Source: Comamonadaceae bacterium
GTDB taxonomy: Bacteria; Pseudomonadota; Gammaproteobacteria; Burkholderiales; Burkholderiaceae_C
Reading direction: 5' to 3'
Assembly: GCA_947464665.1 (NCBI GenBank)
Contig: CANHXV010000001.1
Location: forward strand, 1 to 53,491
DNA length: 53,491 nt
The notes under the pieces were generated by a model. The model worked only from the letters and a program-made list of their open reading frames with translations. It was not told the DNA's origin and ran no database searches. Position 1 is the first letter of the stretch, and every line of letters begins with the position of its first letter. The translations under genes were made by a program, and so were the position numbers. Of this stretch, positions 1 to 13,500 are shown one piece after another.

Positions 1-371
1 ACATCAATGACTTGATGCCAATCTTCTTTGGACATATTGAAGAAAAATCGATCGCGCAAAATGCCTGCGTTGTTGATCACGCAATCGATGCGCCCATAAG
101 TGTCTACGGCCAGTTGCACCATGCGTGCCGCCGCATCCCAATCCGCCACGCTTTCACCATTGGCTATGGCTTCTCCCCCAGCAGCCTTGATTTCATCAAC
201 CACGCTTTGGGCACGCTTGTTGTCTGTGCCAACACCGTCCAAAGAGGCACCTAAATCGTTGACCACGACCTTGGCACCTTCGCGGCCCAATGCAAGTGCA
301 AATTCACGGCCAATACCGCCGCCTGCCCCTGTGACCAAGACGACTTTATCTTTGGCAAATCCTGACTTCAT
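1..371 (-). CDS. SDR family oxidoreductase (runs off the window edge; 3' part missing)
   Basis: Not in the ORF track. Manual translation from ATG at 371 gives MKSGFAKDKVVLVTGAGGGIGREFALALGREGAKVVVNDLG...INNAGILRD, with TGxxxGIG and NNAG motifs. The ATG overlaps the stop of the upstream gene (ATGA). Confidence 0.93.
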   Translation of the reverse strand, partial: MKSGFAKDKVVLVTGAGGGIGREFALALGREGAKVVVNDLGASLDGVGTDNKRAQSVVDEIKAAGGEAIANGESVADWDAAARMVQLAVDTYGRIDCVINNAGILRDRFFFNMSKEDWHQVID

Positions 372-1165
372 TTTTCGTCATCCTGTTTGGGCCGCATGTG
401 TTCAGTGGCCACTTCTTCAATGCGATGCCATACCTCTTGCGCCATGGGGTTGCGCGATTCTTCTAAGATGTGTCCCACCAAGCCCACCGCGCGCGCCATC
501 ACGCCCAAACCGCGACAAATCTTCCAATCAAACCCCATCTCGCAGCAAAGTGCACCAATGGCACCTGTCGCGTTCATCGGCATGGGTTTACCTGAGACCA
601 AACTGGCTTGGGCAGCCACGGCGTCCATCAGCTTGAGATAAGGTCCATCGAATCCGGTTTCCACTGCAATTTGCTTCAGACGGGGTGTGCGGGGATCAAT
701 TGGCTTGTGAAAAGGATGCCCAATTCCCGGCACTATGGCACCGCGGCTTTTGTAAGAATCGACCACCTTCACCGCCAAGGCTTGGAGGTCCTGCTGAGGT
801 TCTTTAGAAGGCATGGTTTCATAAAGGAGCTTGGCAGCACCCTCAATGCTGCCCACAAACACGGTGCCTAAACCATTCAAGCCGGCCGCCACGGCGCCTT
901 GTAGCGACTCTGGTGCCCCCAAATAGGTCATGCGGGCCACCAAAGCGCTAGGTGTAATGCCGTGCTCAACCAGAGTAACCACCATGGCGTTGAACATGCG
1001 AGATTCATTGGGATTGGGAAAACGGCCTGTCAGCTCCAAAAAGCCCATGTCTCCTAAGTTCAGGTGGCCTAGAATTTCATTGGGGAAATCCTTGCCAAAG
1101 AGTGTGATGCTCGAGGCGTCGCTCCACCCAATGTCTGTCCGTATACTCTTTTGCTTGCGTGCCAC
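368..1165 (-). CDS. Citryl-CoA lyase / citrate synthase-like protein
   Basis: Motifs LVEHGITPSAL, GIGHPFHKPIDPR, NATGAIG and RAVGLVGH. Start moved to GTG at 1165, which has an AGGAGG RBS upstream (ORF track extends to 1240). Confidence 0.85.
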   Translation of the reverse strand: MARKQKSIRTDIGWSDASSITLFGKDFPNEILGHLNLGDMGFLELTGRFPNPNESRMFNAMVVTLVEHGITPSALVARMTYLGAPESLQGAVAAGLNGLGTVFVGSIEGAAKLLYETMPSKEPQQDLQALAVKVVDSYKSRGAIVPGIGHPFHKPIDPRTPRLKQIAVETGFDGPYLKLMDAVAAQASLVSGKPMPMNATGAIGALCCEMGFDWKICRGLGVMARAVGLVGHILEESRNPMAQEVWHRIEEVATEHMRPKQDDEK

Positions 1166-1259
1166 TCTTGGCCTCCTGTCCTTTGGATGACCTATCCTAT
1201 GCCGGTGAATGCCAGACAACAAGTCAAATAATCTGAGCAATTGTTAAAAGGAAATTCAA

Positions 1260-2147
1260 ATGCGAGTGAATCTCAAGGTGTTATCGACCTTTCTGGCCGT
1301 GGCAGAGAACGAGAGCTTTCGCAAGGCCGCAGAGCAAACCAATATCTCTTTGCCAGCTGTGAGCATGCAGATCAAGCAGTTGGAGGAACGCTTGGGTGTG
1401 GCTTTGCTGCAGCGCACCACCCGCAAAGTGGTGCTAACCCATGAAGGCGAAAAGTTAATGATCAGCACGCGCAAAGCGATGGCCGAAATTGATGCTGCAC
1501 TGTTAAGCATTGAGCAAGCGGCCAATGCGCAACAAGGCAATTTGGTTTTTGCATGTGTGCCGACAGTGGCAAGTACCCGCCTGCCCACACTGGTGACCGA
1601 ATTTGCCAGAAACTATCCAGGGATTTCTGTGGGCATTCGAGAAACGGCTCAACCTGAATTGTTGGAAGCCATTCGAAAAAGAGAGGTTGACTTTGGCATT
1701 GGGCCCATGCCAGAAAAAATAGGGGTATTTCAATGCACACCTCTGTTTGAAGACCCTTACGTGGCCTTGGTCCCAGAAGACCATCCACTGGCCGATAAAA
1801 ACGGAGTTTCTTTAAGGGAACTCACCAAAATCTCACCTTCTCTGTTGATGCTGGGTTCTTCACAATTCCAACAACAATTGAATGAAGTCCTCCTCAAAAA
1901 CAAGATCAGTCTTGAGCGCAATTACGACTTCACGCACGTCAGTACCATGGCCGCCATGATTGAAGCGGGCTTAGGTGTGGGCATTTTGCCAAAGGTGGCA
2001 GTGCCTCGACAGACGTCTCTCAAAGTGGTCAATATCGTTCGCCCCGTCATGTCTCGCACCATTGCCATTATTTCAATGCGAGGCCATTCTTTGTCGACGG
2101 CCTCCCAGCGTTTCGTTGATATGTGCAATGAGGTTTTAAAAGCCTAA
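1260..2147 (+). CDS. LysR family transcriptional regulator
   Basis: N-terminal HTH (SFRKAAE...SLPAVSMQIKQLEERLGVALLQRTTRKV), 295 aa, divergent from the lyase/SDR genes. Confidence 0.96.
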   Translation: MRVNLKVLSTFLAVAENESFRKAAEQTNISLPAVSMQIKQLEERLGVALLQRTTRKVVLTHEGEKLMISTRKAMAEIDAALLSIEQAANAQQGNLVFACVPTVASTRLPTLVTEFARNYPGISVGIRETAQPELLEAIRKREVDFGIGPMPEKIGVFQCTPLFEDPYVALVPEDHPLADKNGVSLRELTKISPSLLMLGSSQFQQQLNEVLLKNKISLERNYDFTHVSTMAAMIEAGLGVGILPKVAVPRQTSLKVVNIVRPVMSRTIAIISMRGHSLSTASQRFVDMCNEVLKA

Positions 2148-2148
2148 T

Positions 2149-3636
2149 TTAATTGCGCAAAAAAGCGGGCAATTCATCCAAGATGAGGGTCTTGGTTTCT
2201 AGGTATGGCAACAACCCCTCCACCCCGCCCTCGCGGCCCAGGCCAGATTGTTTGAAGCCGCCAAAGGCAATGCTGAAATCACTGCGAAAAGCATTTTGGC
2301 CCACTGTTCCAGTTCGCAGTTGACGGCCGATGGCGTAGGCCCGCTCGGCATCGTGTGTGAACACAGATGCATTAAGACCATAGACTGAATCGTTGGCTGT
2401 CAAAACGGCGGCTTGTTCGTTCTCCACTGGAATAACCGACAGTACAGGCCCAAAAATTTCTTCCCGTGCAATGACTGAATTGTTGGAAATATTGCCGAAT
2501 ACAGTTGGCTCCACAAAATGACCGCGCGGGGTGTGCTGCGGCCGTTTACCACCCGTCACCAGCTTGCCTCCACCATCACAGCCTTTTGCAATGAAGCCCT
2601 CAACCCGCTCACGATGTTTGGCTGTGGCCAAAGGACCCATGCCAGTTTGCGCATCAAAGGGGTCGCCCACTTTAATTTGACCAAAATGATTCGCCATGGC
2701 TTCAAGCAATTGAGACTGCCGATGTTTAGAAACAATGATGCGTGTTAACGAAGAACAGGCTTGACCTGTGAGATAGGTTGCACTTTTGGAAAGTGACTGG
2801 GCCACCAAGTCAAGGTCATAGTCATCGAGAACAATGCCTGCAGATTTTCCGCCCAACTCTAAGGTAACACGCGCAATTCGTTCGCCGCAGATGGAGGCAA
2901 TTCGCTTGCCTGCCAGAGTTGAGCCAGTGAACGAAACTTTATCAACCCCTGAATGGCGCACCAAGTATTCAGACACTTGTCGGTCTGCGGTGAGCACATT
3001 GAAAACGCCAGGCGGAAGACCTGCTGCTTCACAAATTTCAGCCATCAAATAAGGTGAGCTTGGCGCCTCGGGTGAGGCTTTCAAAACCACAGCACAACCG
3101 GCCATGAGCGCAGGTGCAACTTTGAAAGTCATCAGCCGCAGTGGGCCATTCCAAGGAATGATGCAAGCAGCTACACCCACTGGTTCTCGAACCAGCAATC
3201 CAAAATTACCGCCGCCTTTGGGGTGATGCTTTTCTATGAAGGGAAATGTGTCGGCCAAACTGGCGTAATAGCGATAAGCATCACCCAGCGTTTTGGCTGT
3301 GACGCGAGCAGCGCTGTTCACCACGCCGGACTCAGTGGTCCAAACGCGGGCTAAATCTTCGCTACGACGGTCTAACTCATCAGCAATGGCGCGCATGTAA
3401 ACGGCCCGTTCGGCAGGCGTCATGCGGGGCCAGGGCCCTTCGTCAAATGCTTTTCGAGCAGCGGCCACTGCGCGGTCGACGTCGACCTCCTCCGCTTCCG
3501 GCACACTCAAAAAAGGATCCTCAGTCGCTGAATCAATGACTTGGATCCTGCGCGAACCTGAGGGCGCAATCCATTGGCCCCCAATAAAGAGCTTGTCTGG
3601 GTGAGCAAGATGAAAGGGACTCAAGTCAGTGCGCAT
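2149..3636 (-). CDS. Aldehyde dehydrogenase
   Basis: IIPWNGP, FTGST, LELGGKS, catalytic GQAC and EEIFGPV motifs. Confidence 0.96.
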   Translation of the reverse strand: MRTDLSPFHLAHPDKLFIGGQWIAPSGSRRIQVIDSATEDPFLSVPEAEEVDVDRAVAAARKAFDEGPWPRMTPAERAVYMRAIADELDRRSEDLARVWTTESGVVNSAARVTAKTLGDAYRYYASLADTFPFIEKHHPKGGGNFGLLVREPVGVAACIIPWNGPLRLMTFKVAPALMAGCAVVLKASPEAPSSPYLMAEICEAAGLPPGVFNVLTADRQVSEYLVRHSGVDKVSFTGSTLAGKRIASICGERIARVTLELGGKSAGIVLDDYDLDLVAQSLSKSATYLTGQACSSLTRIIVSKHRQSQLLEAMANHFGQIKVGDPFDAQTGMGPLATAKHRERVEGFIAKGCDGGGKLVTGGKRPQHTPRGHFVEPTVFGNISNNSVIAREEIFGPVLSVIPVENEQAAVLTANDSVYGLNASVFTHDAERAYAIGRQLRTGTVGQNAFRSDFSIAFGGFKQSGLGREGGVEGLLPYLETKTLILDELPAFLRN

Positions 3637-3672
3637 GGCAAATCAATCAATTAAAAATGAAGGCAAAACAAT

Positions 3673-4647
3673 TTAAGGTTTGAGTCCGAGTTCTTGCACC
3701 AAGGTAGCCGTAGCGGGACTTTCAAGTTGTACCGATTTTGCAAGCTCAACACCATCACGCCAATTGGTTTGAACACCCAAGCTCAACAATTTGTCTTTCA
3801 CCGCATCGGAAGTCACCGAAGCTTGCACATCGGATTGAATCTTCTTCAGCAAAGCGGGTGTCATGCCACGCGGTGCCAGCATGATATGCGATAGGCTGAC
3901 GCGCTGGTCTTTCATTCCGAGTTCTAGCAAGGTTGGCACATTGGGCAAGGTGCTCAAGCGACTGGGTGTGGTCACTGCCAAGGCTTTGAATTTGCCGTTT
4001 TGAATAAAGGGTAGATTGTTGGGAACAGCATCGACCGCCAATTGAATTTCACCGCCCATGAGGGCTTTGGTGGTGTCTGGGCCACTCTTGTAAGGCACCC
4101 AAGTGAATTTGATTTTTGCCTGCCGCGCAAATTGCTCTAAAAGCAGTTGTGTCACTGTTGCAGGACCGCCAGCATTCAAATCACTGGGCCGCGCTTTGGC
4201 CATGTCTATCAGGTCATTCAAGTTTTTGGCAGGCGATGTATCGCTCACCAACAACAACATGGGCACCGAGGTGAGTTGGCCTACATAGGTGAAATCATTG
4301 ACAGGATCGTAAGGCACTTTCGCCAGGGTGTGGGGCGTCAATGTCAGGGTGCTGTTGATGGCCATCAGCAAGGTGTACCCGTCTGGCGCTGCGCGCAGAA
4401 CTTCAGCGGCCGCAATAACGGTATCGCCACCAGGTTTGTTGTCTACCAAGACTTGTTGGCCCCAACGCTGTGACAAGTCTTGGGCAATGACCCGCGCTGT
4501 GACATCTGCCGTCCCGCCGGCACCAAAAGGAATGACCAAGCGCACGGTCCGATTAGGCCAAGATTGGGCTGCAGCGTTTAAACCAAAGATCAGCATCGAA
4601 GCACTTAGCAAGGCACCCAACAAGGTCTTGAATTGTTTTTTCATCAT
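3673..4647 (-). CDS. Bug/TctC tripartite tricarboxylate transporter substrate-binding protein
   Basis: Signal peptide, then WPNRTVRLVIPFGAGGTADV, VDNKPGG, APDGYTLL and VPYKSG. Confidence 0.94.
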   Translation of the reverse strand: MMKKQFKTLLGALLSASMLIFGLNAAAQSWPNRTVRLVIPFGAGGTADVTARVIAQDLSQRWGQQVLVDNKPGGDTVIAAAEVLRAAPDGYTLLMAINSTLTLTPHTLAKVPYDPVNDFTYVGQLTSVPMLLLVSDTSPAKNLNDLIDMAKARPSDLNAGGPATVTQLLLEQFARQAKIKFTWVPYKSGPDTTKALMGGEIQLAVDAVPNNLPFIQNGKFKALAVTTPSRLSTLPNVPTLLELGMKDQRVSLSHIMLAPRGMTPALLKKIQSDVQASVTSDAVKDKLLSLGVQTNWRDGVELAKSVQLESPATATLVQELGLKP

Positions 4648-4890
4648 GTCTCCAAGGTTGAAAAATTTTTCCTAGCAACTTTGAGGCTTGCAGGAAACGT
4701 ATCAAGCAGTATCCAAAGTTTGATGGCGACTGTGAATTCACTTTTACTGAAGAATTGTTCAGACTAAGGCGCCCTATCGCTTTAAGCATCATGCCAATAA
4801 GGCAATTTAATCATTGAACAAAGGTTAAGGAAATTCGACTTGTACCCAAGCGCATAGGGGGATAGCATTTGGGTTTTTGATTTCAAAGTC

Positions 4891-5952
4891 ATGCCCATGA
4901 AGAGCTATCAAATCGTAGACTGGGGTCAACCCTTAGAAGCTAGGCAAGTCGACATGCCCGTACCTCGTGGAAACGAGGTGTTGGTTAAAGTGGGCGCTGC
5001 TGGTTTGTGCCACAGCGACATCCACCTGCGCGATGGCTACTTCGATTTGGGTGGTGGCAAAAGACTCACTGCAGCCCAGTACGGCGCCAAAATGCCCATG
5101 ACCTTGGGTCATGAAATAGCCGGTACGGTGTTTCAGGTGGGCGAAGGCGTAAAGCAGGCCTGGACGGGTGCCAACGTGCTGGTCTACCCTTGGATTGGGT
5201 GTGGCAAGTGTGATGCATGCCAAGATTTGCGCGATACCGACTGCGAAGCCCAACGCAGCTTAGGCGCCAAAGCTGATGGTGGCTTTAGCGAATATGTGCT
5301 GGTACCCGATGCCAGATACCTGATTGACATTGGCCAGCTCGATATGCATGCTTCAGCCACTTTGGCATGCTCTGGCCTGACGGCATTTGGCGCCCTGAAA
5401 AAAATGCCCCCCATGAAACCCACCGATCGCATTTTGCTCATTGGCGCAGGCGGTTTGGGACTCTCTGCTCTGGCTGCAGCACGTCTAGTGACCAAGGCAG
5501 GTTTGGTGGTGGCCGACATTGACCCCATCAAATTGGAAGCCGCCAAACAACAAGGCGCCGATGTTATTTTTGACAATCGCACACCCGACACAGCGGCTGC
5601 ACTCAAGGCTGCAGCGGGTGGCCCTATTCGAGGTGTGATTGACTTTGTGGGCAGCGGAACAACAGCTTCGCTGGCCATGGGTGTAGCCGTCAAAGGCACT
5701 GTCATTGTGGTGGTGGGATTGATGGGTGGGAGCTTAGAAATTGCCTTGCCCTTGCTTTCACCGCGCAACCTTACCATTCGGGGCTCTCACGTAGGCACAT
5801 TCGATGAGCTCAAAGAGCTGGTGGAGTTTTCAAGAAATGGCCAGCTTCCTGGCATTCCTCTCACACGCCGACCCATGAGCGAAGTGAATGAGGCATTGAG
5901 CGATTTAGAGAACGGCAAGTCCGTAGGCAGGATTGTGCTTACCCCCAACTAA
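4891..5952 (+). CDS. Zn-dependent alcohol dehydrogenase (MDR family)
   Basis: GLCHSD, GHE, structural Zn motif CGKCDAC...C, and GAGGLG. Confidence 0.95.
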   Translation: MPMKSYQIVDWGQPLEARQVDMPVPRGNEVLVKVGAAGLCHSDIHLRDGYFDLGGGKRLTAAQYGAKMPMTLGHEIAGTVFQVGEGVKQAWTGANVLVYPWIGCGKCDACQDLRDTDCEAQRSLGAKADGGFSEYVLVPDARYLIDIGQLDMHASATLACSGLTAFGALKKMPPMKPTDRILLIGAGGLGLSALAAARLVTKAGLVVADIDPIKLEAAKQQGADVIFDNRTPDTAAALKAAAGGPIRGVIDFVGSGTTASLAMGVAVKGTVIVVVGLMGGSLEIALPLLSPRNLTIRGSHVGTFDELKELVEFSRNGQLPGIPLTRRPMSEVNEALSDLENGKSVGRIVLTPN

Positions 5953-5996: not shown

Positions 5997-6803
5997 TTAA
6001 TTCCAAGCCAACTGCCTTGAAATCATGCCGCACGTCGACAACAACTGTTGCGCGTGTTCTATGACCTTGCTTTCCATCCGATGCCTGGGCCCTGCAACGG
6101 CCACGGCCAAGGTTTCTGAGTTGACATTCAAAAAGGCAGACACGGCCCACACATCGGTTACGTTTTCACCGCGGGTCACAAAGTAGCCGCGCTTTCTGCT
6201 GGCCAAAATATCGGCAATCAAATCGTCTGCTGTTGTGATGGTGTTTTCGGTAATGCGTTTGAAATCTCGACCCAAGAGTTGACTGCGCAATTCAGCTTCT
6301 TTCAGACTGCCCATCAAGGCTTTGCCAATGGCACTCGCGTGCAAGGGTTTGAACTCTCCTGACTTAGACGAATACCTGATGGAGTTCAGGCTCTCAAACA
6401 CTTGCAAATAAATCACAGAATTGCCTTGACGCTTGCCCAAAATAATTGTCTCTTGGGTACTGTCCCGCAGCCGCTCCAACATTGGCATGACGTTCTCCAC
6501 AAAGGGGTCATGCGCATGAATATCACGGGCCACATCCAGCAAACGCCTAGTTGGATACAAAGCACGGGGTCGCGTGAGTGAATACAAAAAACCCCGCGCG
6601 ATCAGCGTTGCCACGATGGCGTGGCAACTGCTTTTGGGAATGGCCGTCATTTCTGCTAACTCAGTAAGAGACAGCGGTTTTTGAACACGTTGAAATGCAT
6701 CCAAGATGTCCAACATGCGTCCGATCGCAGTTACGGCTGTACCTGATGCACTCACTTGTTCGATATTTGGAACAAGTTCTTTTAATGTTGATTTTCTTTT
6801 CAT
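5997..6803 (-). CDS. IclR family transcriptional regulator
   Basis: HTH LSLTELAEMTAIPKSSCHAIVATL and the IclR motif PLHASAIGKALM. The true start may be GTG at 6755. Confidence 0.95.
   Translation of the reverse strand: MKRKSTLKELVPNIEQVSASGTAVTAIGRMLDILDAFQRVQKPLSLTELAEMTAIPKSSCHAIVATLIARGFLYSLTRPRALYPTRRLLDVARDIHAHDPFVENVMPMLERLRDSTQETIILGKRQGNSVIYLQVFESLNSIRYSSKSGEFKPLHASAIGKALMGSLKEAELRSQLLGRDFKRITENTITTADDLIADILASRKRGYFVTRGENVTDVWAVSAFLNVNSETLAVAVAGPRHRMESKVIEHAQQLLSTCGMISRQLAWN
6754..6777. promoter_or_regulatory. Candidate IclR operator, second copy
   Basis: Palindrome ACTTGTTC-GATATTTG-GAACAAGT, 60 bp from the similar site at 6816. Confidence 0.6.
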
Positions 6804-6815
6804 TTAAATTAAAGT

Positions 6816-6835
6816 TTGTTCGATTTATCGAACAA
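6816..6835. promoter_or_regulatory. Candidate IclR operator (PcaR/PobR-box-like)
   Basis: Perfect palindrome TTGTTCGAT-TT-ATCGAACAA between the divergent IclR and crotonase genes. Resembles the PcaR/PcaU-type GTTCGATAATCGCAC box with one extra central base. Confidence 0.75.
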
Positions 6836-6877
6836 CTATTCTTGCATGTGAATTATTGAAATATACCATCTCTTCCA

Positions 6878-7687
6878 ATGCAACATTCAAATTCACCAGC
6901 ACCAACGTCAGGGCAAGCGGGCCAAATACAAACGCGAGAAACGCCAGAGGGCGCAGTTTGGCTCACCATTAACCGCGCAGAAAAGCACAACGCACTGGCA
7001 CGACAGGTACTTTTGGACTTGGCGGCCCATGTAAGAGCGCTGGGTCAACAAGCGCATGTGCGGTACATCGTCATCACTGGCGCCGGCGACAAATACTTTG
7101 CAGCTGGCGGTGACCTGCGAGAACTTACCAACGTGCGCGACGCACACGCTGTCCACACCATGATGACGGACGCTTTTGGTTCACTTCAAGCAATACGCCA
7201 ATGTCCAGTCCCGGTCATCGCACTGCTCAATGGCGATGCCATTGGCGGTGGGGGCGAGTTGGCGGCTGCCTGTGACATGCGCCTCATGGCATCGCATGCG
7301 CGGATCGGTTATATCCAAGCCAAGCTGGCCATCACCTCGGCATGGGGGGGCGGCCCCGATTTGTTCAAACTGGTGGGCCCCGCTCGTGCCATGCGCATGA
7401 TGACGCGCTGCGAACTGATTGACGCAGCCACCGCTCAATCTTGGGGTTTGGCCGACGCCATCCTTTCGGATGGCGTTGACGGGTCAGACATTGCAGCCTT
7501 TTTGAAACCGCTGAACCATTGCTCAACGCTTGTGCTTCGCGGCATCAAGGCACAAGCCATCGCCGCTCGTTCAAACAGCAGTTGGGCTGAGCACCGGGAT
7601 ATCGAAGAGCAACATTTGGTCCGCACTTGGTTGCATGACGACCATTGGGCAGCCGCAGAAAAGCTGCTCAAAAAAACCAGCGCTTAA
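6878..7687 (+). CDS. Crotonase-superfamily protein, possibly an acylmalonyl-CoA decarboxylase
   Basis: FAAGGDL and AIGGGGELAAACDMR motifs. The second catalytic Glu of hydratases is replaced (IGYIQAKLAITSAWGG). Confidence 0.9.
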   Translation: MQHSNSPAPTSGQAGQIQTRETPEGAVWLTINRAEKHNALARQVLLDLAAHVRALGQQAHVRYIVITGAGDKYFAAGGDLRELTNVRDAHAVHTMMTDAFGSLQAIRQCPVPVIALLNGDAIGGGGELAAACDMRLMASHARIGYIQAKLAITSAWGGGPDLFKLVGPARAMRMMTRCELIDAATAQSWGLADAILSDGVDGSDIAAFLKPLNHCSTLVLRGIKAQAIAARSNSSWAEHRDIEEQHLVRTWLHDDHWAAAEKLLKKTSA

Positions 7688-7715
7688 CAAATCAATTTTT
7701 CAAAGGTGAACAGCA

Positions 7716-9317
7716 GTGGCATCATTTTCTGAACCTCAGCTCGACAAGGTCAGTCGAAGTGGCATTGAAATTCCCGCCAGCGTCGACGCTGGCGCTGTGA
7801 ACGCCGACAAAATTGGCAAGGCAGGAGAATACCCATTCACTCGCGGTATTTTTCCAGATGGCTATCAAGGCCGCTTGTGGACCATTCGGCAGTACTCTGG
7901 TTTTGGAACTGCAGAAGAGTCGAATGAGCGCTACAAATTTCTTTTAGCCCAGGGCCAAACAGGCTTGTCGGTTGCGCTCGATTTACCAACACAGTGCGGC
8001 TACGACCCCACTCACCCCATGGCCAGACCCGAGATTGGGAAAGTGGGCGTGTCACTGTCGAATCTCTCTGAAGCAGAAATTCTCTTCAAAGACTTAGACC
8101 TTTCCAAAATATCCACGTCCTTCACCATCAACGGTACGGCCGCCATCATCTACGCCATGTATTTGGCTGTGGCCGACAAGCAAGGTGTGCACCGCTCCAA
8201 ACTGACTGGCACCATTCAAAATGATATTTTGAAGGAATACGTGGCACGAGGCACTTGGATTTTTCCGGTCAAGCCTTCTATGCGTCTCATTGCCGATTCC
8301 ATTTTGTATTCCAACGACGAAACACCGCGCTTCAACCCCATCAGCATTGCGGGCGCACACGTTCGAGATGCAGGTGCGACGGCTGCTGAAGAAATGGCCT
8401 ATACCTTGGCCAATGGCTTGGCGTATGTTGATGAATTGAACAGCCGCGGCGGAGACATTGAAAAGTTTGCAAAGCGCTTGTCCTTCTTTTTCTATGTTCA
8501 CATGGACTTCTTTGAGGAGATTGCCAAGTTCCGCGCGGGACGCCGAATTTGGGCCAAGCTGATGAAGGAACGCTATGGTGCTCAAGATCCCAAAGCACAA
8601 CACTTTCGATTTGGTGTGGTCTGCGGTGGTTCTTCCTTAGTGGCGCCGCAAGCCTACAACAATGTGGTGCGAGTGGCCGTTGAAACCATGGCCGCAGTAT
8701 TTGGAGGCGCACAGTCTATTTTTACATGTGCCATGGACGAAGCCTTCCAAATTCCAACCGAGTTCAGTGCCGAACTGGCTGTGCGCACACAGCAAATCAT
8801 TGCCTATGAGTCAGGCATCGCTCGAAGCGTCGACCCCTTGGGTGGAAGCTACGTGCTGGAGCAATACACCGACAAGATGGAAGAAACCATTTTGGGCATC
8901 ATGCATGAGATTGATGCCTATGGCGGCGTAACCAAAGCAATTGAAGATGGATGGCTACAACTTCGTTTGGCCAGACGTGGTTTAGAAAGAAAAGTCGATA
9001 CGGACAGTGGTAAGAATGTGGTGGTGGGTCAAAACCATTTTCGCAAAGCCGATGAAGAGATTGGTGTCGGTGATGTTTTCAAACTCGATCCCACCGTCGC
9101 ACAACGCGCGTTAGAAAAATTTGAACGCACACTCAATTCCCGTGATCAAGTGCAAGTGGACCATTCATTGGCTCAACTTTCAAAAGCGGCTGCAGATGAC
9201 AAAGTCAATGTCATGCCTTACCTCGTCGACTGCTGTCATGCCTACGCTACTGTGGGTGAGATGGTGGCTTGTCTGAAAAAAGAATGGGGCGAATTTCAGG
9301 AGCCCGTCAATTTATGA
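7716..9317 (+). CDS. B12-dependent acyl-CoA mutase, large (substrate-binding) subunit
   Basis: GEYPFTRG, WTIRQYSGF, GLSVALDLPTQ, TIQNDILKEY and DPLGGSY. GTG start. Confidence 0.95.
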   Translation: MASFSEPQLDKVSRSGIEIPASVDAGAVNADKIGKAGEYPFTRGIFPDGYQGRLWTIRQYSGFGTAEESNERYKFLLAQGQTGLSVALDLPTQCGYDPTHPMARPEIGKVGVSLSNLSEAEILFKDLDLSKISTSFTINGTAAIIYAMYLAVADKQGVHRSKLTGTIQNDILKEYVARGTWIFPVKPSMRLIADSILYSNDETPRFNPISIAGAHVRDAGATAAEEMAYTLANGLAYVDELNSRGGDIEKFAKRLSFFFYVHMDFFEEIAKFRAGRRIWAKLMKERYGAQDPKAQHFRFGVVCGGSSLVAPQAYNNVVRVAVETMAAVFGGAQSIFTCAMDEAFQIPTEFSAELAVRTQQIIAYESGIARSVDPLGGSYVLEQYTDKMEETILGIMHEIDAYGGVTKAIEDGWLQLRLARRGLERKVDTDSGKNVVVGQNHFRKADEEIGVGDVFKLDPTVAQRALEKFERTLNSRDQVQVDHSLAQLSKAAADDKVNVMPYLVDCCHAYATVGEMVACLKKEWGEFQEPVNL

Positions 9318-9730
9318 GCAACAACACACAAACCATGCCCTTGGCGGGGCGCCGTATTTTGATCGGCAAACCAGGACTAGATGGTCATGACATTGGTGCA
9401 AAAATAATCGCCTTAACGCTTCGCGATGCCGGCGCAGAAGTCATCTACACAGGTTTGCGACGAAGCCCATTGCAAATTGCACAAGTTGCAATTGACGAAG
9501 GTGTGGATGCTGTGGGTCTCAGCATTTTGTCGGGTAGTCACAAAGAGTTGGTAGAAAACGTCATGGCTGAATTGAAAAATCTCAAGGCCGACAGCGTCAA
9601 GGTTTTTGTGGGCGGGACCATTCCCAAATCTGACCATGCGTTCCTCAGTCAGCTGGGAGTTGCTGCTGTATTTACTGCTGATATGTCCTTGGAAGAAGTC
9701 GTACAAGAACTAGCGATTCAACTTTCATGA
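9314..9730 (+). CDS. Acyl-CoA mutase small subunit (cobalamin-binding domain)
   Basis: KPGLDGHDIGAK (DxHxxG), GLSILSGSH and VGGTIP. ATG at 9314 overlaps the large-subunit TGA. Confidence 0.95.
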   Translation: MSNNTQTMPLAGRRILIGKPGLDGHDIGAKIIALTLRDAGAEVIYTGLRRSPLQIAQVAIDEGVDAVGLSILSGSHKELVENVMAELKNLKADSVKVFVGGTIPKSDHAFLSQLGVAAVFTADMSLEEVVQELAIQLS

Positions 9731-10896
9731 ACAAGCCAACGGGTTTTTCCGCTGGGCCGCTGGCGGGCATTCGCATCATTGAAGTTGGCCACATGTTGGC
9801 TGGGCCTTATTGCGGCTTGTTACTGGCTGACATGGGGGCAGAAGTTATCAAAATCGAACCTCGCAATGGCGACATTGCGCGTCACGTTAGCCCTCACTTT
9901 ATTGGCCCCCACAACGCCTACTTTGCAAGTTTGAACAGAAACAAGCAAAGCATTGTGTTAGATCTGGCAAGTCATGAGGGGCGGCAGGAACTTGAAAAAT
10001 TAGTCTCCAACTCTCACGCGCTGATCACCAATTTACGACCGTCAGCCATACGCAAACTGGGACTGACCTACGACAGCCTCGGCATGCACAATCAGAAGTT
10101 TGTGTGCGTTGCACTCACTGGTTACGGACTAGAAGGCCCCTATTCAGAAAATCCAGCATATGACTACGTCATACAAGCTCTTACAGGCGTGATGTCACTG
10201 ACTGGGGACCCCTCAGCGCCACCCACCAAGGCTGGCTATTCGGCTGTAGACAACTCAGCCGGCATGGTGGCAGCCATGGGGCTTTTGGCAAAAATTGTAG
10301 AAGGAAAGGGCGGCCAAGTGGATGTGGCGATGTATGACGTGATGTTGTCACAGCTCAACTATTTGGTGGGTGCATCCCTGAATGCAAACGAAGAGATTAA
10401 ACGTTACGCTCATTCATCACACCCCTACATGGTGCCTGCGCAAATTTTTCTAACCGCTAAAGGCTGGCTAACGTTGTTCATCACCCATGACAAATTTTGG
10501 GCAAAATTTTGTCATGAAATTGGAAAACCTGAGTGGATTACAGACGAAGTATTTGCAAGTATGGCATCAAGACGTCAGAACAGAGATGTCGTGTTAACAG
10601 CCATCATGGCCATTCTAAAGACTCAAAGCGCTGAAATTTGGGTCAAGCGTTTGGCACCGCTAGGGCTGGTCGTTTCCGAAGTGAGCACACTTAACCAGGC
10701 GCTAGACAGCGAACTCACATCAGCACGCGGACTTGTGGTTAATCTCGTCAACGACTCGGGAGAGCAAACGCTTCCTTTGCGCGCCATTGGAAGCCTTGTA
10801 CGATTTAATGGGTATCAACCTCAATACCGATTGCCACCCTTGCTTGACGAACATCACGAAGTCATTCTTGGAAAGCCCAAGGAGGCTCTAACTTGA
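9727..10896 (+). CDS. Family III (CaiB/BaiF) CoA-transferase
   Basis: GPLAGIRIIE, AGPYCGLLLADMGAEVIKIE, LNRNKQSI, NLRP and AYDYVIQA. Confidence 0.95.
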   Translation: MNKPTGFSAGPLAGIRIIEVGHMLAGPYCGLLLADMGAEVIKIEPRNGDIARHVSPHFIGPHNAYFASLNRNKQSIVLDLASHEGRQELEKLVSNSHALITNLRPSAIRKLGLTYDSLGMHNQKFVCVALTGYGLEGPYSENPAYDYVIQALTGVMSLTGDPSAPPTKAGYSAVDNSAGMVAAMGLLAKIVEGKGGQVDVAMYDVMLSQLNYLVGASLNANEEIKRYAHSSHPYMVPAQIFLTAKGWLTLFITHDKFWAKFCHEIGKPEWITDEVFASMASRRQNRDVVLTAIMAILKTQSAEIWVKRLAPLGLVVSEVSTLNQALDSELTSARGLVVNLVNDSGEQTLPLRAIGSLVRFNGYQPQYRLPPLLDEHHEVILGKPKEALT

Positions 10897-11822
10897 GCGA
10901 TTCTGAGCAACGCACAAAGCTGAATCGATTTGCATTGGGACGCCAATTGACAGCCCTGGCAAATACCAGTCCGCAGGAGATGCTGGACAAAATGCCGTCT
11001 GATGCCGCAAAGCATCAAGCCCAGCGTATTGGCCTGACGGGTGCGCCGGGCTCCGGCAAAAGCACATTGGGCGGTCAGCTTGCAATGCACCGCCTCATTC
11101 GAGAAAGTGCTGTGCAACGATTAGGTATTTTGGCCATAGACCCCAGCAGTCCAAAATCCGGTGGCGCTATCTTAGGCGATCGAATCCGCATGGATGAATT
11201 ACCAGGGAGCGCTGAACTGTTCATTCGCTCGCTAGGCTCAAGAAGTACTGCCGACGGACTGACAGACAACCTTCCAGAAATGCTGGACCTCATGGACAGC
11301 TTTGAATTTGATGAAGTCTTGATTGAAACCGTTGGCGTCGGCCAGGTCGAATATGCAGTGCGTTTACAAGTCGACACGCTGGTGTTGGTTCTTTTACCCA
11401 ACAGCGGCGACATGGTGCAAGCCATGAAATCAGGCATCATGGAAATGCCCGACATCTTTGTGGTCAACAAATCTGACCTTTCAGGTGCAGATCGAACTGC
11501 CGCAGACATTGAGCGAATCACAGCTTTGAGAAAAATAACCAAGGTGCAATGGCACCCTCAAGTGCTATTGGTTTCAAATTCCAAACCGGAAAGTATTGTG
11601 GCGCTGTCAAAAGAAATTGACCGTCACCAAAATTGGCTTATCACTTCGGGTGAACAACAAAAAATTCAAATTGATCGGGCGCGCTACAGGCTTCGACGAA
11701 TTATCGAACGTCGGGTGCAGCAGGTCATTGATGAACTTGGCGACACAGACATGAAACAAGCATTACCCGAGCAGTTTGAAAAGGTCATCAGCAAACTCCG
11801 AGGGGCACGAAATTCAATTTAA
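10893..11822 (+). CDS. meaB: MeaB/ArgK G-protein chaperone of B12 mutases
   Basis: GAPGSGKST, DPSSPKSGGAILGDRIRM, ETVGVGQ and NKSD, adjacent to the mutase genes. Confidence 0.92.
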   Translation: MSDSEQRTKLNRFALGRQLTALANTSPQEMLDKMPSDAAKHQAQRIGLTGAPGSGKSTLGGQLAMHRLIRESAVQRLGILAIDPSSPKSGGAILGDRIRMDELPGSAELFIRSLGSRSTADGLTDNLPEMLDLMDSFEFDEVLIETVGVGQVEYAVRLQVDTLVLVLLPNSGDMVQAMKSGIMEMPDIFVVNKSDLSGADRTAADIERITALRKITKVQWHPQVLLVSNSKPESIVALSKEIDRHQNWLITSGEQQKIQIDRARYRLRRIIERRVQQVIDELGDTDMKQALPEQFEKVISKLRGARNSI

Positions 11823-12449: not shown

Positions 12450-13274
12450 TTAAATGGGTTGATCGCCTTGCAGCGTAATCCGGTGCAAGACGCGGCGGAA
12501 GCCATGATAGTCGTTCACGGGATTGTGCTGTGCGCAACGGTTGTCCCAAAATGCGACTGCATCTGGCTCCCAAGACCATCGGCAGGTGAACTCAGGCTTG
12601 ACTTGATGCTCAAACAAAAAGGACAACAAGGATGCGCTTTCCTTGTCTGTTAAGCCTTCAATGCCAGCGGTGTGCGCCACATTGACGTAGAGCGCTTTGC
12701 GGCCAGTCTCGGGGTGAGTGCGAACCACAGGATGCGAACTACTGAAACTTTTGGGGGAAGATTCAATGCCATCTGACTTGATACGATCTTCCCTGGTTTT
12801 GGAAACATCTGCTTTGGCCGAGGTGTTGACTCCCTTCAAGCCATGTAACAAACGTTGCATGGTGTCTGACAAGGCCTCGTAAGCGGCATATTGGCAAGCA
12901 AACAAGGTGTCACCGCCATAAGGGGGAATTTCTTTCGAAAGCAACATCGAACCCATGGGCGGTATATCTAAATAAGCAGTGTCAGAGTGCCATACACCAC
13001 CAAAGTTGACCTTCTCGTGTTCTAACTTTTTCACTTCGATGATTTGCGGAAAGTCTTCGAAGCCTTTGACGAAGGGATATTCAATGGGCTCGCCCATGGC
13101 TTTGGCAAAGTTCATGAATTGTTGCGAAGTGAGCGCTTGATTGCGAAAAAATATGACGCTGTTTTTTAAAAATACATCACGAACTTCTTTCGTTAAATCT
13201 GGCGACATGGATTGCGTTAAATCAACCCCAGAAATTTCAGCGCCCAAGCTACCCGCAATTCTTTTGATTTTCAT
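12450..13274 (-). CDS. TauD/TfdA family Fe(II)/2-oxoglutarate dioxygenase
   Basis: LGAEISGVDL, WHSD, GGDTLF, HPVVRTHPETGRKALYVN and WDNRCAQH. Confidence 0.95.
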   Translation of the reverse strand: MKIKRIAGSLGAEISGVDLTQSMSPDLTKEVRDVFLKNSVIFFRNQALTSQQFMNFAKAMGEPIEYPFVKGFEDFPQIIEVKKLEHEKVNFGGVWHSDTAYLDIPPMGSMLLSKEIPPYGGDTLFACQYAAYEALSDTMQRLLHGLKGVNTSAKADVSKTREDRIKSDGIESSPKSFSSSHPVVRTHPETGRKALYVNVAHTAGIEGLTDKESASLLSFLFEHQVKPEFTCRWSWEPDAVAFWDNRCAQHNPVNDYHGFRRVLHRITLQGDQPI

Positions 13275-13500
13275 AGCCAATTTTCTCGAACTTAATTAAA
13301 CAGCAGTCGAACCCGTAATGCTGGATCAACTCTGCGATTGGGTTTTTATTCTAATACCGATTTTTTGTTATAACAGAAGTGCCAAGGATGCAGTGGATTG
13401 GCTACTGACCTGCCATCTTTAGACGAACCAATGATGGATAATTAGTACGTTTTTTTGACCCTGACCGAGTGTGTTGAAAATCAGTTACCAGAAGCAGTCC

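Follow-up and report, generated by a model that had tools for sequence, protein, structure and literature searches.

The stretch of DNA considered here (the window, 53,491 nucleotides from a Comamonadaceae bacterium, contig CANHXV010000001.1) carries an operon built around a B12-dependent acyl-CoA mutase. Calling of open reading frames (ORFs) and family assignment gave the gene order as a divergent IclR regulator gene, then genes for a crotonase, the two mutase subunits, a family III CoA-transferase and a MeaB-type chaperone. The features are the following:

5997-6803, minus strand: IclR-family regulator gene (iclR), divergent from the crotonase gene
6754-6777: second inverted repeat, within the start of iclR, with the same core as the palindrome at 6816-6835; candidate autoregulatory operator
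6816-6835: palindrome TTGTTCGATTTATCGAACAA, candidate IclR operator with a TTC-N8-GAA core
6839-6852: weaker core site just past the palindrome
6878-7687, plus strand: crotonase-fold protein of the ECHDC1 (ethylmalonyl-CoA decarboxylase) subfamily, predicted substituted-malonyl-CoA decarboxylase
7716-9317, plus strand: acyl-CoA mutase large subunit mutA, GTG start, on a branch of its own
9314-9730, plus strand: B12-binding small subunit mutB, ATG start overlapping the mutA stop
9727-10896, plus strand: family III CoA-transferase (Pfam CoA_transf_3)
10893-11822, plus strand: MeaB-type G-protein chaperone of the mutase (meaB), TTG start

The crotonase and mutA genes are separated by 28 nt. The mutA/mutB and mutB/CoA-transferase junctions overlap by ATGA and the CoA-transferase/meaB junction by TTGA. 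ORFs and junctions thus confirm the gene content, the co-orientation, the divergent iclR and the overlaps of the last four genes reported in a preliminary description of this DNA. The ORFs and families of the unit likewise contain no epimerase, carboxylase or acyl-CoA dehydrogenase, as that description had stated. The GC content of the operon is 0.50, against 0.51-0.52 in the flanks.

The operon is a real and widely conserved bacterial module, whose gene order recurs in alpha-, beta- and gammaproteobacteria. The best 120 homologues of MutA are 84-98% identical to it, and the named ones are mostly from Burkholderiales. On annotated replicons, the five-gene order was found in Diaphorobacter, Sulfitobacter, Paraburkholderia and Marinobacter, with genes for TTT, TAXI or TRAP transporters or for an adenosyltransferase coming next; the module order is also present in Ramlibacter and Billgrantia. 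A clade-specific mutase pattern matched at least 120 metagenome stretches, 80 of which were analysed. Synteny was counted only at loci with enough flanking sequence, and some loci are near-duplicates, so that the counts are not independent. The crotonase gene lies directly upstream of mutA at 55 of 64 such loci, mutB is present at all 61, meaB at 36 of 42 and the CoA-transferase gene at 42 of 56, and all five genes occur together at 21 of 37. This comparison of neighbourhoods establishes that the module is syntenic elsewhere. The earlier idea of a self-contained module holds for the syntenic unit but not for every locus, the crotonase and the CoA-transferase each being missing from a minority. 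In the one gammaproteobacterial genome with a crotonase-less locus that was checked, an orthologue is encoded elsewhere (E 6e-104). The distribution is patchy, with the module in two of 400 other genomes of the family sample and in none of three within the same genus.

Outside the Proteobacteria, this mutase branch also occurs in Methylomirabilota, where its partner is a crotonase from a distinct lineage within the ECHDC1 subfamily. Actinobacterial loci show the order mutA, mutB, F420-dependent LLM oxidoreductase (TIGR03564), CoA-transferase. This actinobacterial form (L008, L010, L011, L014-L016, L021, L022) is often accompanied by a CoA ligase, paired acyl-CoA dehydrogenases and P450s, and its TIGR03564 protein belongs to the MSMEG_4879 family. 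By gene order, MSMEG_4881-4878 of M. smegmatis may be a unit of the actinobacterial type, with MSMEG_4881 probably a member of the mutase branch; PMC10066036 records MSMEG_4881 once, as an incidental mutation.

The mutase large subunit combines a conserved carboxylate clamp with a rebuilt pocket. Numbered by alignment after the methylmalonyl-CoA mutase (MCM) of P. shermanii, it retains Y89, T166, Q197, R207, H244 and E370 and should therefore bind a dicarboxylyl-CoA. The clamp residues Y89 and R207 are kept in 97/97 and 102/102 aligned loci, respectively. The substitutions S241A, Y243A, E247D, H328G, Q330V, H364F and N366C are present in 120/120 close homologues and in every locus of the clade (366 being C or A). 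Among the 106 loci, where aligned, G328 was found in 102/102 and V330, F364 and C/A366 in 101/101 each; in the 80 metagenome loci, positions 241-247 were already dictated by the search pattern, so that they are informative in the remaining loci only. All 62 split mutases outside the clade in the same genome scan retain Y243, H328, Q330, H364 and N366. The pocket is thereby invariantly rebuilt and more hydrophobic than the canonical one. A quick IQ-TREE run separated the 37 clade rows by a branch (SH-aLRT 98) from split MCM, IcmF, hydroxyisobutyryl-, pivalyl- and Iaa-type rows, the pivalyl and hydroxyisobutyryl labels being assigned from residues 89 and 207.

The protein has what defines an adenosylcobalamin-dependent acyl-CoA mutase, namely the MM_CoA_mutase barrel, a B12-binding domain with DxHxxG and a MeaB partner; in the small subunit this motif (Asp23, His25, Gly28) is intact in 88/88 aligned loci. 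It shares the Tyr89/Arg207 clamp with MCM but has Ala/Gly/Val/Phe/Cys at Tyr243/His328/Gln330/His364/Asn366, and it lacks the signature of isobutyryl-, 2-hydroxyisobutyryl- and pivalyl-CoA mutases (Phe/Ile/Leu89, Gln/Asn207). These residues support a mutase that would be built for a dicarboxylyl-CoA other than methylmalonyl-CoA. The rebuilt pocket could instead redirect the adenosyl radical to another reaction, such as a shift on a longer diacid of the glutarate or adipate type, or an elimination. The combination Y243A, E247D and Q330V occurs in no other mutase group sampled and presumably lies near the cofactor. Nevertheless, the unchanged Y89, T166, Q197, R207, H244 and E370 fix the spacing between thioester and carboxylate as in MCM, and pivalyl-type and Iaa mutases also alter some of the changed positions, which makes such a reaction very improbable.

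Other mutase arrangements were encountered during the searches. The Diaphorobacter plasmid carries a pivalyl-type mutase with its own meaB about 10 kb upstream of the module (L086:1-2151). Another split mutase (L232, G651:C32:6000-25252; the mutase in L211) has Y89/R207 and a third type of pocket (F328, G330, A366, S287) and is co-oriented with a carboxyltransferase, a TRAP transporter and an amidohydrolase, with CoA ligases on the flanks; this could be a parallel module for a substituted succinate, using a decarboxylase of the biotin type. On a plasmid of Shinella sp. WSD5-1 (L253:6086-12967), one unit comprises an aminotransferase, mutB, meaB, mutA, a crotonase and a CoA ligase, its mutA (Val89/Gln207, Asp247) being a hydroxyisobutyryl-like variant linked to an amino acid.

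The crotonase was placed by residues and by trees. Glu127, Gln or His147, Trp156, Trp251 and His256 are each found in 91/91 operon crotonases. The Gln147 of the window protein aligns with the second glutamate of hydratases, which is absent in 91/91, so that none is a two-glutamate hydratase. A profile of the 91 sequences was searched against 1.84 billion representatives. Among its best 150 matches were a broad bacterial subfamily with the same signature and the mollusc protein P0359 (E 1.8e-49), whose relatives carry the name ethylmalonyl-CoA decarboxylase. Glu, Gln/His, Trp and Trp occupy the four positions in 119/119 ECHDC1-family matches, a signature derived from the alignments of this analysis. 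In a 26-row tree, the operon crotonases, ECHDC1 and three related bacterial proteins lie on one side of a branch (SH-aLRT 99); grouping the operon crotonases with two-glutamate hydratases was rejected (p-AU 0.014) and grouping them with ScpB was weakly rejected (p-AU 0.041). A 58-row tree agrees with lower support (88-95). Signature and tree position thus both assign the operon protein to the ECHDC1 subfamily. The same ECHDC1-like signature (P0247-P0396) marks a large bacterial crotonase subfamily that includes members from Bacillota and Actinomycetota.

Animal ECHDC1 is described as an ethylmalonyl-CoA decarboxylase with a role in metabolite repair (PMC8473548, PMC6717113 and PMC8780949), and the mouse enzyme as decarboxylating ethyl- and methylmalonyl-CoA (PMC8780949). 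The operon crotonases are only 25-34% identical to it, branch off separately inside the subfamily, have His instead of Asn at position 256 and, unlike the animal repair enzyme, share a unit with a mutase. Most likely, the operon crotonase is a decarboxylase and not, as far as sequence tells, solely a hydratase, an outcome that would have undone the preliminary description.

The CoA-transferase has the CoA_transf_3 domain and, in 65/65 aligned loci, Asp175, which aligns with the catalytic Asp of family III; it scores under the cut-off of every named NCBIfam equivalog. In two loci, both without crotonase, a single ORF fuses CoA-transferase and MeaB (L129:3530-5380, L143:4202-6046).

From the gene content, synteny, residue signatures, tree placement and operator conservation observed here, we infer the catalytic steps, direction of flux and substrate class of a pathway, held with moderate confidence, in which an imported substituted succinate is activated with CoA, rearranged to a substituted malonyl-CoA and decarboxylated. 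The substrate would enter the cell as a succinate bearing a hydrophobic substituent and would be activated by the family III CoA-transferase. The B12 mutase, whose cofactor MeaB would load and protect, would then move the thioester group to give a substituted malonyl-CoA. The ECHDC1-type crotonase would strip CO2 from it non-oxidatively, yielding an acyl-CoA for beta-oxidation and pulling the reversible mutase step forward. As long as the acid and its CoA ester are absent, IclR would repress the operon from the TTC-N8-GAA sites. The substituted-succinate module put forward earlier is thus partly supported, by a mutase with a dicarboxylate clamp and altered pocket and by a decarboxylase-like crotonase. 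The substrate would be non-polar and exceed succinate in size or branching. Methyl-, dialkyl-, isopropyl- and cycloalkyl-succinates in which ordinary beta-oxidation is blocked are candidates; several of them give branched products, so that the unbranched acyl-CoA of the earlier proposal does not necessarily follow. In many loci, the module has carboxylate-type transporter genes (TTT, TRAP, TAXI) and an adenosyltransferase gene as neighbours.

Several observations weigh against this pathway. The crotonase gene is not upstream of mutA in 9/64 loci, the CoA-transferase is missing from 14/56, and the actinobacterial loci carry the F420 LLM oxidoreductase with no orthologous crotonase in the locus. 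Residues Y243, Q330 and N366 presumably also touch the adenosyl group, so their changes need not mean a larger substrate. The operon crotonase profile gives some two-glutamate hydratases 180-185 bits, compared with 131-185 for ECHDC1 rows, and so does not by score set ECHDC1 apart; Foldseek on the crotonase model (pLDDT 94.5) returned generic crotonases only; and position 256 is an invariant His in the operon proteins, compared with Asn in 97/119 ECHDC1 proteins. Atlas matches of the crotonase were unnamed enoyl-CoA hydratase clusters. The crotonase could accordingly be a one-glutamate hydratase, isomerase or hydrolase that prepares the substrate of the mutase, whose product would be handled elsewhere. 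This would suit the invariant His256, the actinobacterial loci and the best sequence and fold matches among solved structures, which are hydratases; the bacterial subfamily is moreover broad and its functions are putative. It is nonetheless distinctly unlikely: the second glutamate is absent throughout, the four-residue signature and both trees link the proteins to ECHDC1, and in the Methylomirabilota, too, this mutase branch has a crotonase of the subfamily as its partner, from another lineage. A relative of a malonyl-CoA decarboxylase beside a mutase that forms a malonyl-CoA is the simpler fit.

Stereochemistry adds a further difficulty for the succinate-to-acyl-CoA pathway. For mouse ECHDC1, activity on (S)-isomers is reported (PMC8780949), whereas characterised mutases use (R)-isomers (PMC5719088). 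One epimerase query sequence found no homologue in any of 106 loci. In the source genome, which is 66% complete, no epimerase scored above the family cut-off; a weak match on contig C61, near the canonical mutase (41 bits, cut-off 115), leaves room for epimerisation in trans. An (R)-tolerant decarboxylase, an epimerase in trans or a non-epimerisable product would therefore be needed. ScpB accepts the (R)-isomer without an epimerase.

A non-epimerisable product would arise if the module were a B12 route through a quaternary carbon, the mutase acting on a doubly substituted succinyl-CoA for which Y243A makes room. Knockout mice for ECHDC1 accumulate 2,2-dimethylmalonyl-CoA (PMC8473548), and position 243 is also altered in pivalyl-type mutases, for which reasons a fully substituted malonyl-CoA was kept under consideration. 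An epimerase would be impossible and unneeded with such a product, which would explain its absence from all 106 loci. This version is tentative and rather doubtful; candidate substrates would be 2,2- or 2,3-dimethylsuccinate or a C4 ester of methylsuccinate.

Flux could also run the other way, a substituted malonate such as dimethyl- or ethylmalonate, possibly derived from methyl oxidation, being activated and rearranged to a substituted succinyl-CoA while the decarboxylase clears the isomer that the mutase cannot use. Mutases are reversible: IaaGH is called so in PMC8360864, and MatBQ runs from malonyl to succinyl (PMC5719088). An (S)-decarboxylase and an (R)-mutase without epimerase would split a racemic malonyl-CoA between two exits, some loci lack the crotonase, and a 2-oxoglutarate (2OG)-Fe(II) oxygenase stands beside the module in 9/106 loci, the most repeated extension of the module, usually with aldehyde and short-chain dehydrogenases. 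Yet a B12 mutase and its chaperone add little if the malonyl-CoA can be decarboxylated directly, irreversible decarboxylation would draw flux off the mutase, and the loci conserve no enzyme, whether dehydrogenase, hydratase or lyase, that is dedicated to a substituted succinyl-CoA. Reverse flux is therefore considered unlikely, and decarboxylation of a rearranged succinate is preferred.

The likeness of the operon to the E. coli 'sleeping beauty' (scp) locus, drawn in the preliminary description, stands by analogy of enzyme kinds and fails by descent. Both units hold a mutase, a MeaB-type GTPase, a crotonase-fold decarboxylase and a CoA-transferase without epimerase, and MutA is 43.5% identical to ScpA and MeaB 35% to E. 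coli ArgK. In contrast, ScpA is a single chain with the canonical pocket Y243/H328/Q330/H364/N366, whereas the operon mutase is split and its branch has none of these residues. The operon crotonase is 23% identical to ScpB, which lies outside the ECHDC1 group, and ScpC has no significant match to the family III transferase. The locus thus has neither the ScpB-type decarboxylase, the ScpC-type transferase nor the single-chain MCM of a 'sleeping beauty' operon. Besides the operon mutase, the source genome encodes a canonical MCM (on C61, with meaB), an IcmF-type fusion (on C114) and an adenosyltransferase of the PduO type; because of this MCM and IcmF, the operon mutase is regarded as a specialised paralogue. 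In spite of the four shared enzyme kinds, a second succinate-to-propionate operon is extremely unlikely given the altered pocket, the canonical MCM already present and the non-orthologous crotonase and CoA-transferase. On the preferred reading, the operon and scp would function alike but be built from different parts.

The reaction sequence itself has precedents, and the operon is not a new kind of system. In the Iaa auxin pathway of Aromatoleum aromaticum, IaaL, IaaGH and IaaF turn aryl-succinate into aryl-acryloyl-CoA by CoA transfer, B12 rearrangement and oxidative decarboxylation (PMC8360864), and the alkylsuccinate route of anaerobic alkane degradation uses the same chemistry (Wilkes et al. 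2002, as cited in PMC8360864). The claim of an undescribed route can therefore not be upheld. The Iaa pathway and, on the preferred reading, the operon both treat a substituted succinate with a CoA-transferase, a split B12 mutase and a decarboxylating enzyme. A benzoyl-CoA pathway marker is present in 12 of 301 genomes from the order; nine of these 12, from several families, have an Iaa-type mutase (L215-L220, L223-L225), and both neighbourhoods checked show an iaa-type gene set around it. The cluster in L231, identified as iaa-type by gene content, comprises a CoA ligase, hydantoinase subunits, an acyl-CoA dehydrogenase, a mutase, a molybdo-enzyme and a family III transferase. Its mutase resembles that of the operon in having Y89/R207 and an opened pocket. 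However, Iaa-type mutases are 42-45% identical to the operon mutase, form a separate branch and open a different wall (I328, G/A330, A364, C366, N287, with Y243 kept). The IaaL-like transferase is 29% identical to that of the operon, and Iaa decarboxylation is oxidative, through an acyl-CoA dehydrogenase. Around the operon module, neither a hydantoinase nor a molybdo-enzyme is conserved, and its best IaaF-like neighbours are only 24-35% identical. Identity with the Iaa mutase was thus rejected, on account of the different branch and pocket and the lack of an IaaF in the operon.

Other B12 mutases share parts of the pocket. An Ecm-like protein (L252, unannotated; the Ecm signature is Gly328, Pro366, Tyr243, Gln330 and a single chain) has Y89/R207, G328-V329 and the loss of N366 in common with the operon mutase, and the Iaa mutase shares the loss of H328, Q330 and N366. 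Both of these mutases take substituted succinyl-CoAs. The operon protein differs in being 35% identical to the single-chain Ecm-like protein, which keeps Y243, E247 and Q330, and Ecm serves assimilation with an epimerase; of the ethylmalonyl-CoA mutase signature only Gly328-Val329 is common. The alkylmalonyl-CoA mutases MatBQ and ActD, long-alkyl variants known from biosynthesis in the case of MatBQ (PMC5719088), resemble the operon mutase by description, as does the alkylsuccinate route, in interconverting long-alkyl malonyl- and succinyl-CoAs; MatBQ is set apart, again by description, by its biosynthetic role with a carboxylase and an epimerase.

The regulator is conserved with the module. 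IclR orthologues 42-73% identical to that of the window adjoin it in many loci, divergent or co-oriented. The palindrome at 6816-6835 noticed earlier is real, and its TTC-N8-GAA core, chosen after viewing the very sequences in which it was counted, occurs in 21/21 divergent IclR/crotonase spacers (52 sites, against a mean of 0.86 and at most 6 over 1000 mononucleotide shuffles; L160 was left out as a near-copy of the window) and in 18/27 co-oriented upstream regions (22 sites; shuffled mean 0.59). IclR would bind at these sites. A sigma-70 scan found no promoter in the iclR/crotonase spacer. Five of ten metatranscriptome runs held 5-11% of words; contigs from four runs gave scattered short pieces on iclR, mutB, the CoA-transferase gene and meaB, none on the crotonase gene and only short loose-ended pieces on mutA. 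Such scattered pieces are evidence neither of transcription nor of an operon transcript.

ORF clustering around 105 loci and family scans identified no single compound from the neighbours of the module, a further point against the proposed pathway. The neighbour families, none of them common enough, are transporters, the 2OG oxygenase extension with aldehyde dehydrogenase (ALDH) and short-chain dehydrogenase (SDR), TauD, amidases and citryl-CoA-lyase-like genes. The 2OG-Fe(II) oxygenases (L086, L092, L102, L112, L115, L119, L149, L154, L169) are 53-94% alike, share the orientation of the module and are often accompanied by an ABC binding protein, ALDH and SDR; the nearest relative in the source genome is only 30% identical. 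This extension points to oxidation of a precursor as an occasional source of the diacid. In the window, a TauD-family dioxygenase gene (12450-13280, minus strand) converges on meaB, and in L105 and L113 the module is adjoined by orthologues with 70% identity. The TauD proteins near the module form two unrelated groups, about 30% alike. A sulfonated substrate, suggested by the TauD and LLM proteins, was rejected in view of the non-orthologous TauDs and the hydrophobic mutase pocket. Upstream of iclR (368-5952) lie genes for a citryl-CoA-lyase-like protein, a LysR regulator, an aldehyde dehydrogenase, a TTT binding protein and a zinc alcohol dehydrogenase, which are not conserved with the module as a block.

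What looks undescribed is the mutase branch, its substrate and the non-oxidative ECHDC1-type step. A literature search, whose coverage left several primary papers outside, found no study of the mutase branch or of its ECHDC1-type partner. Jost is said to have predicted uncharacterised mutase classes in 2015. To our knowledge, only a few acyl-CoA mutase specificities have been characterised. Every addition has shown how bacteria degrade branched carbon skeletons at which beta-oxidation stops. The present branch has an invariant pocket across Proteobacteria, Actinomycetota and Methylomirabilota and occurs in cultured, tractable strains. Non-pathogenic carriers of the module include Cupriavidus necator, Hydrogenophaga, Paraburkholderia caribensis and Sulfitobacter dubius, to which Mycolicibacterium smegmatis would be added if MSMEG_4881 is a member. 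If the proposed pathway is correct, it would assign bacterial relatives of ECHDC1, a repair enzyme in animals, their first pathway role, and a mutase accepting bulky diacids would be useful for biocatalysis. Should the route pass through a quaternary carbon, the mutase reaction would be new, the bacterial ECHDC1 relatives would have a role in catabolism, and gem-dimethyl terpenoid or carotenoid fragments could be degraded by a general route.

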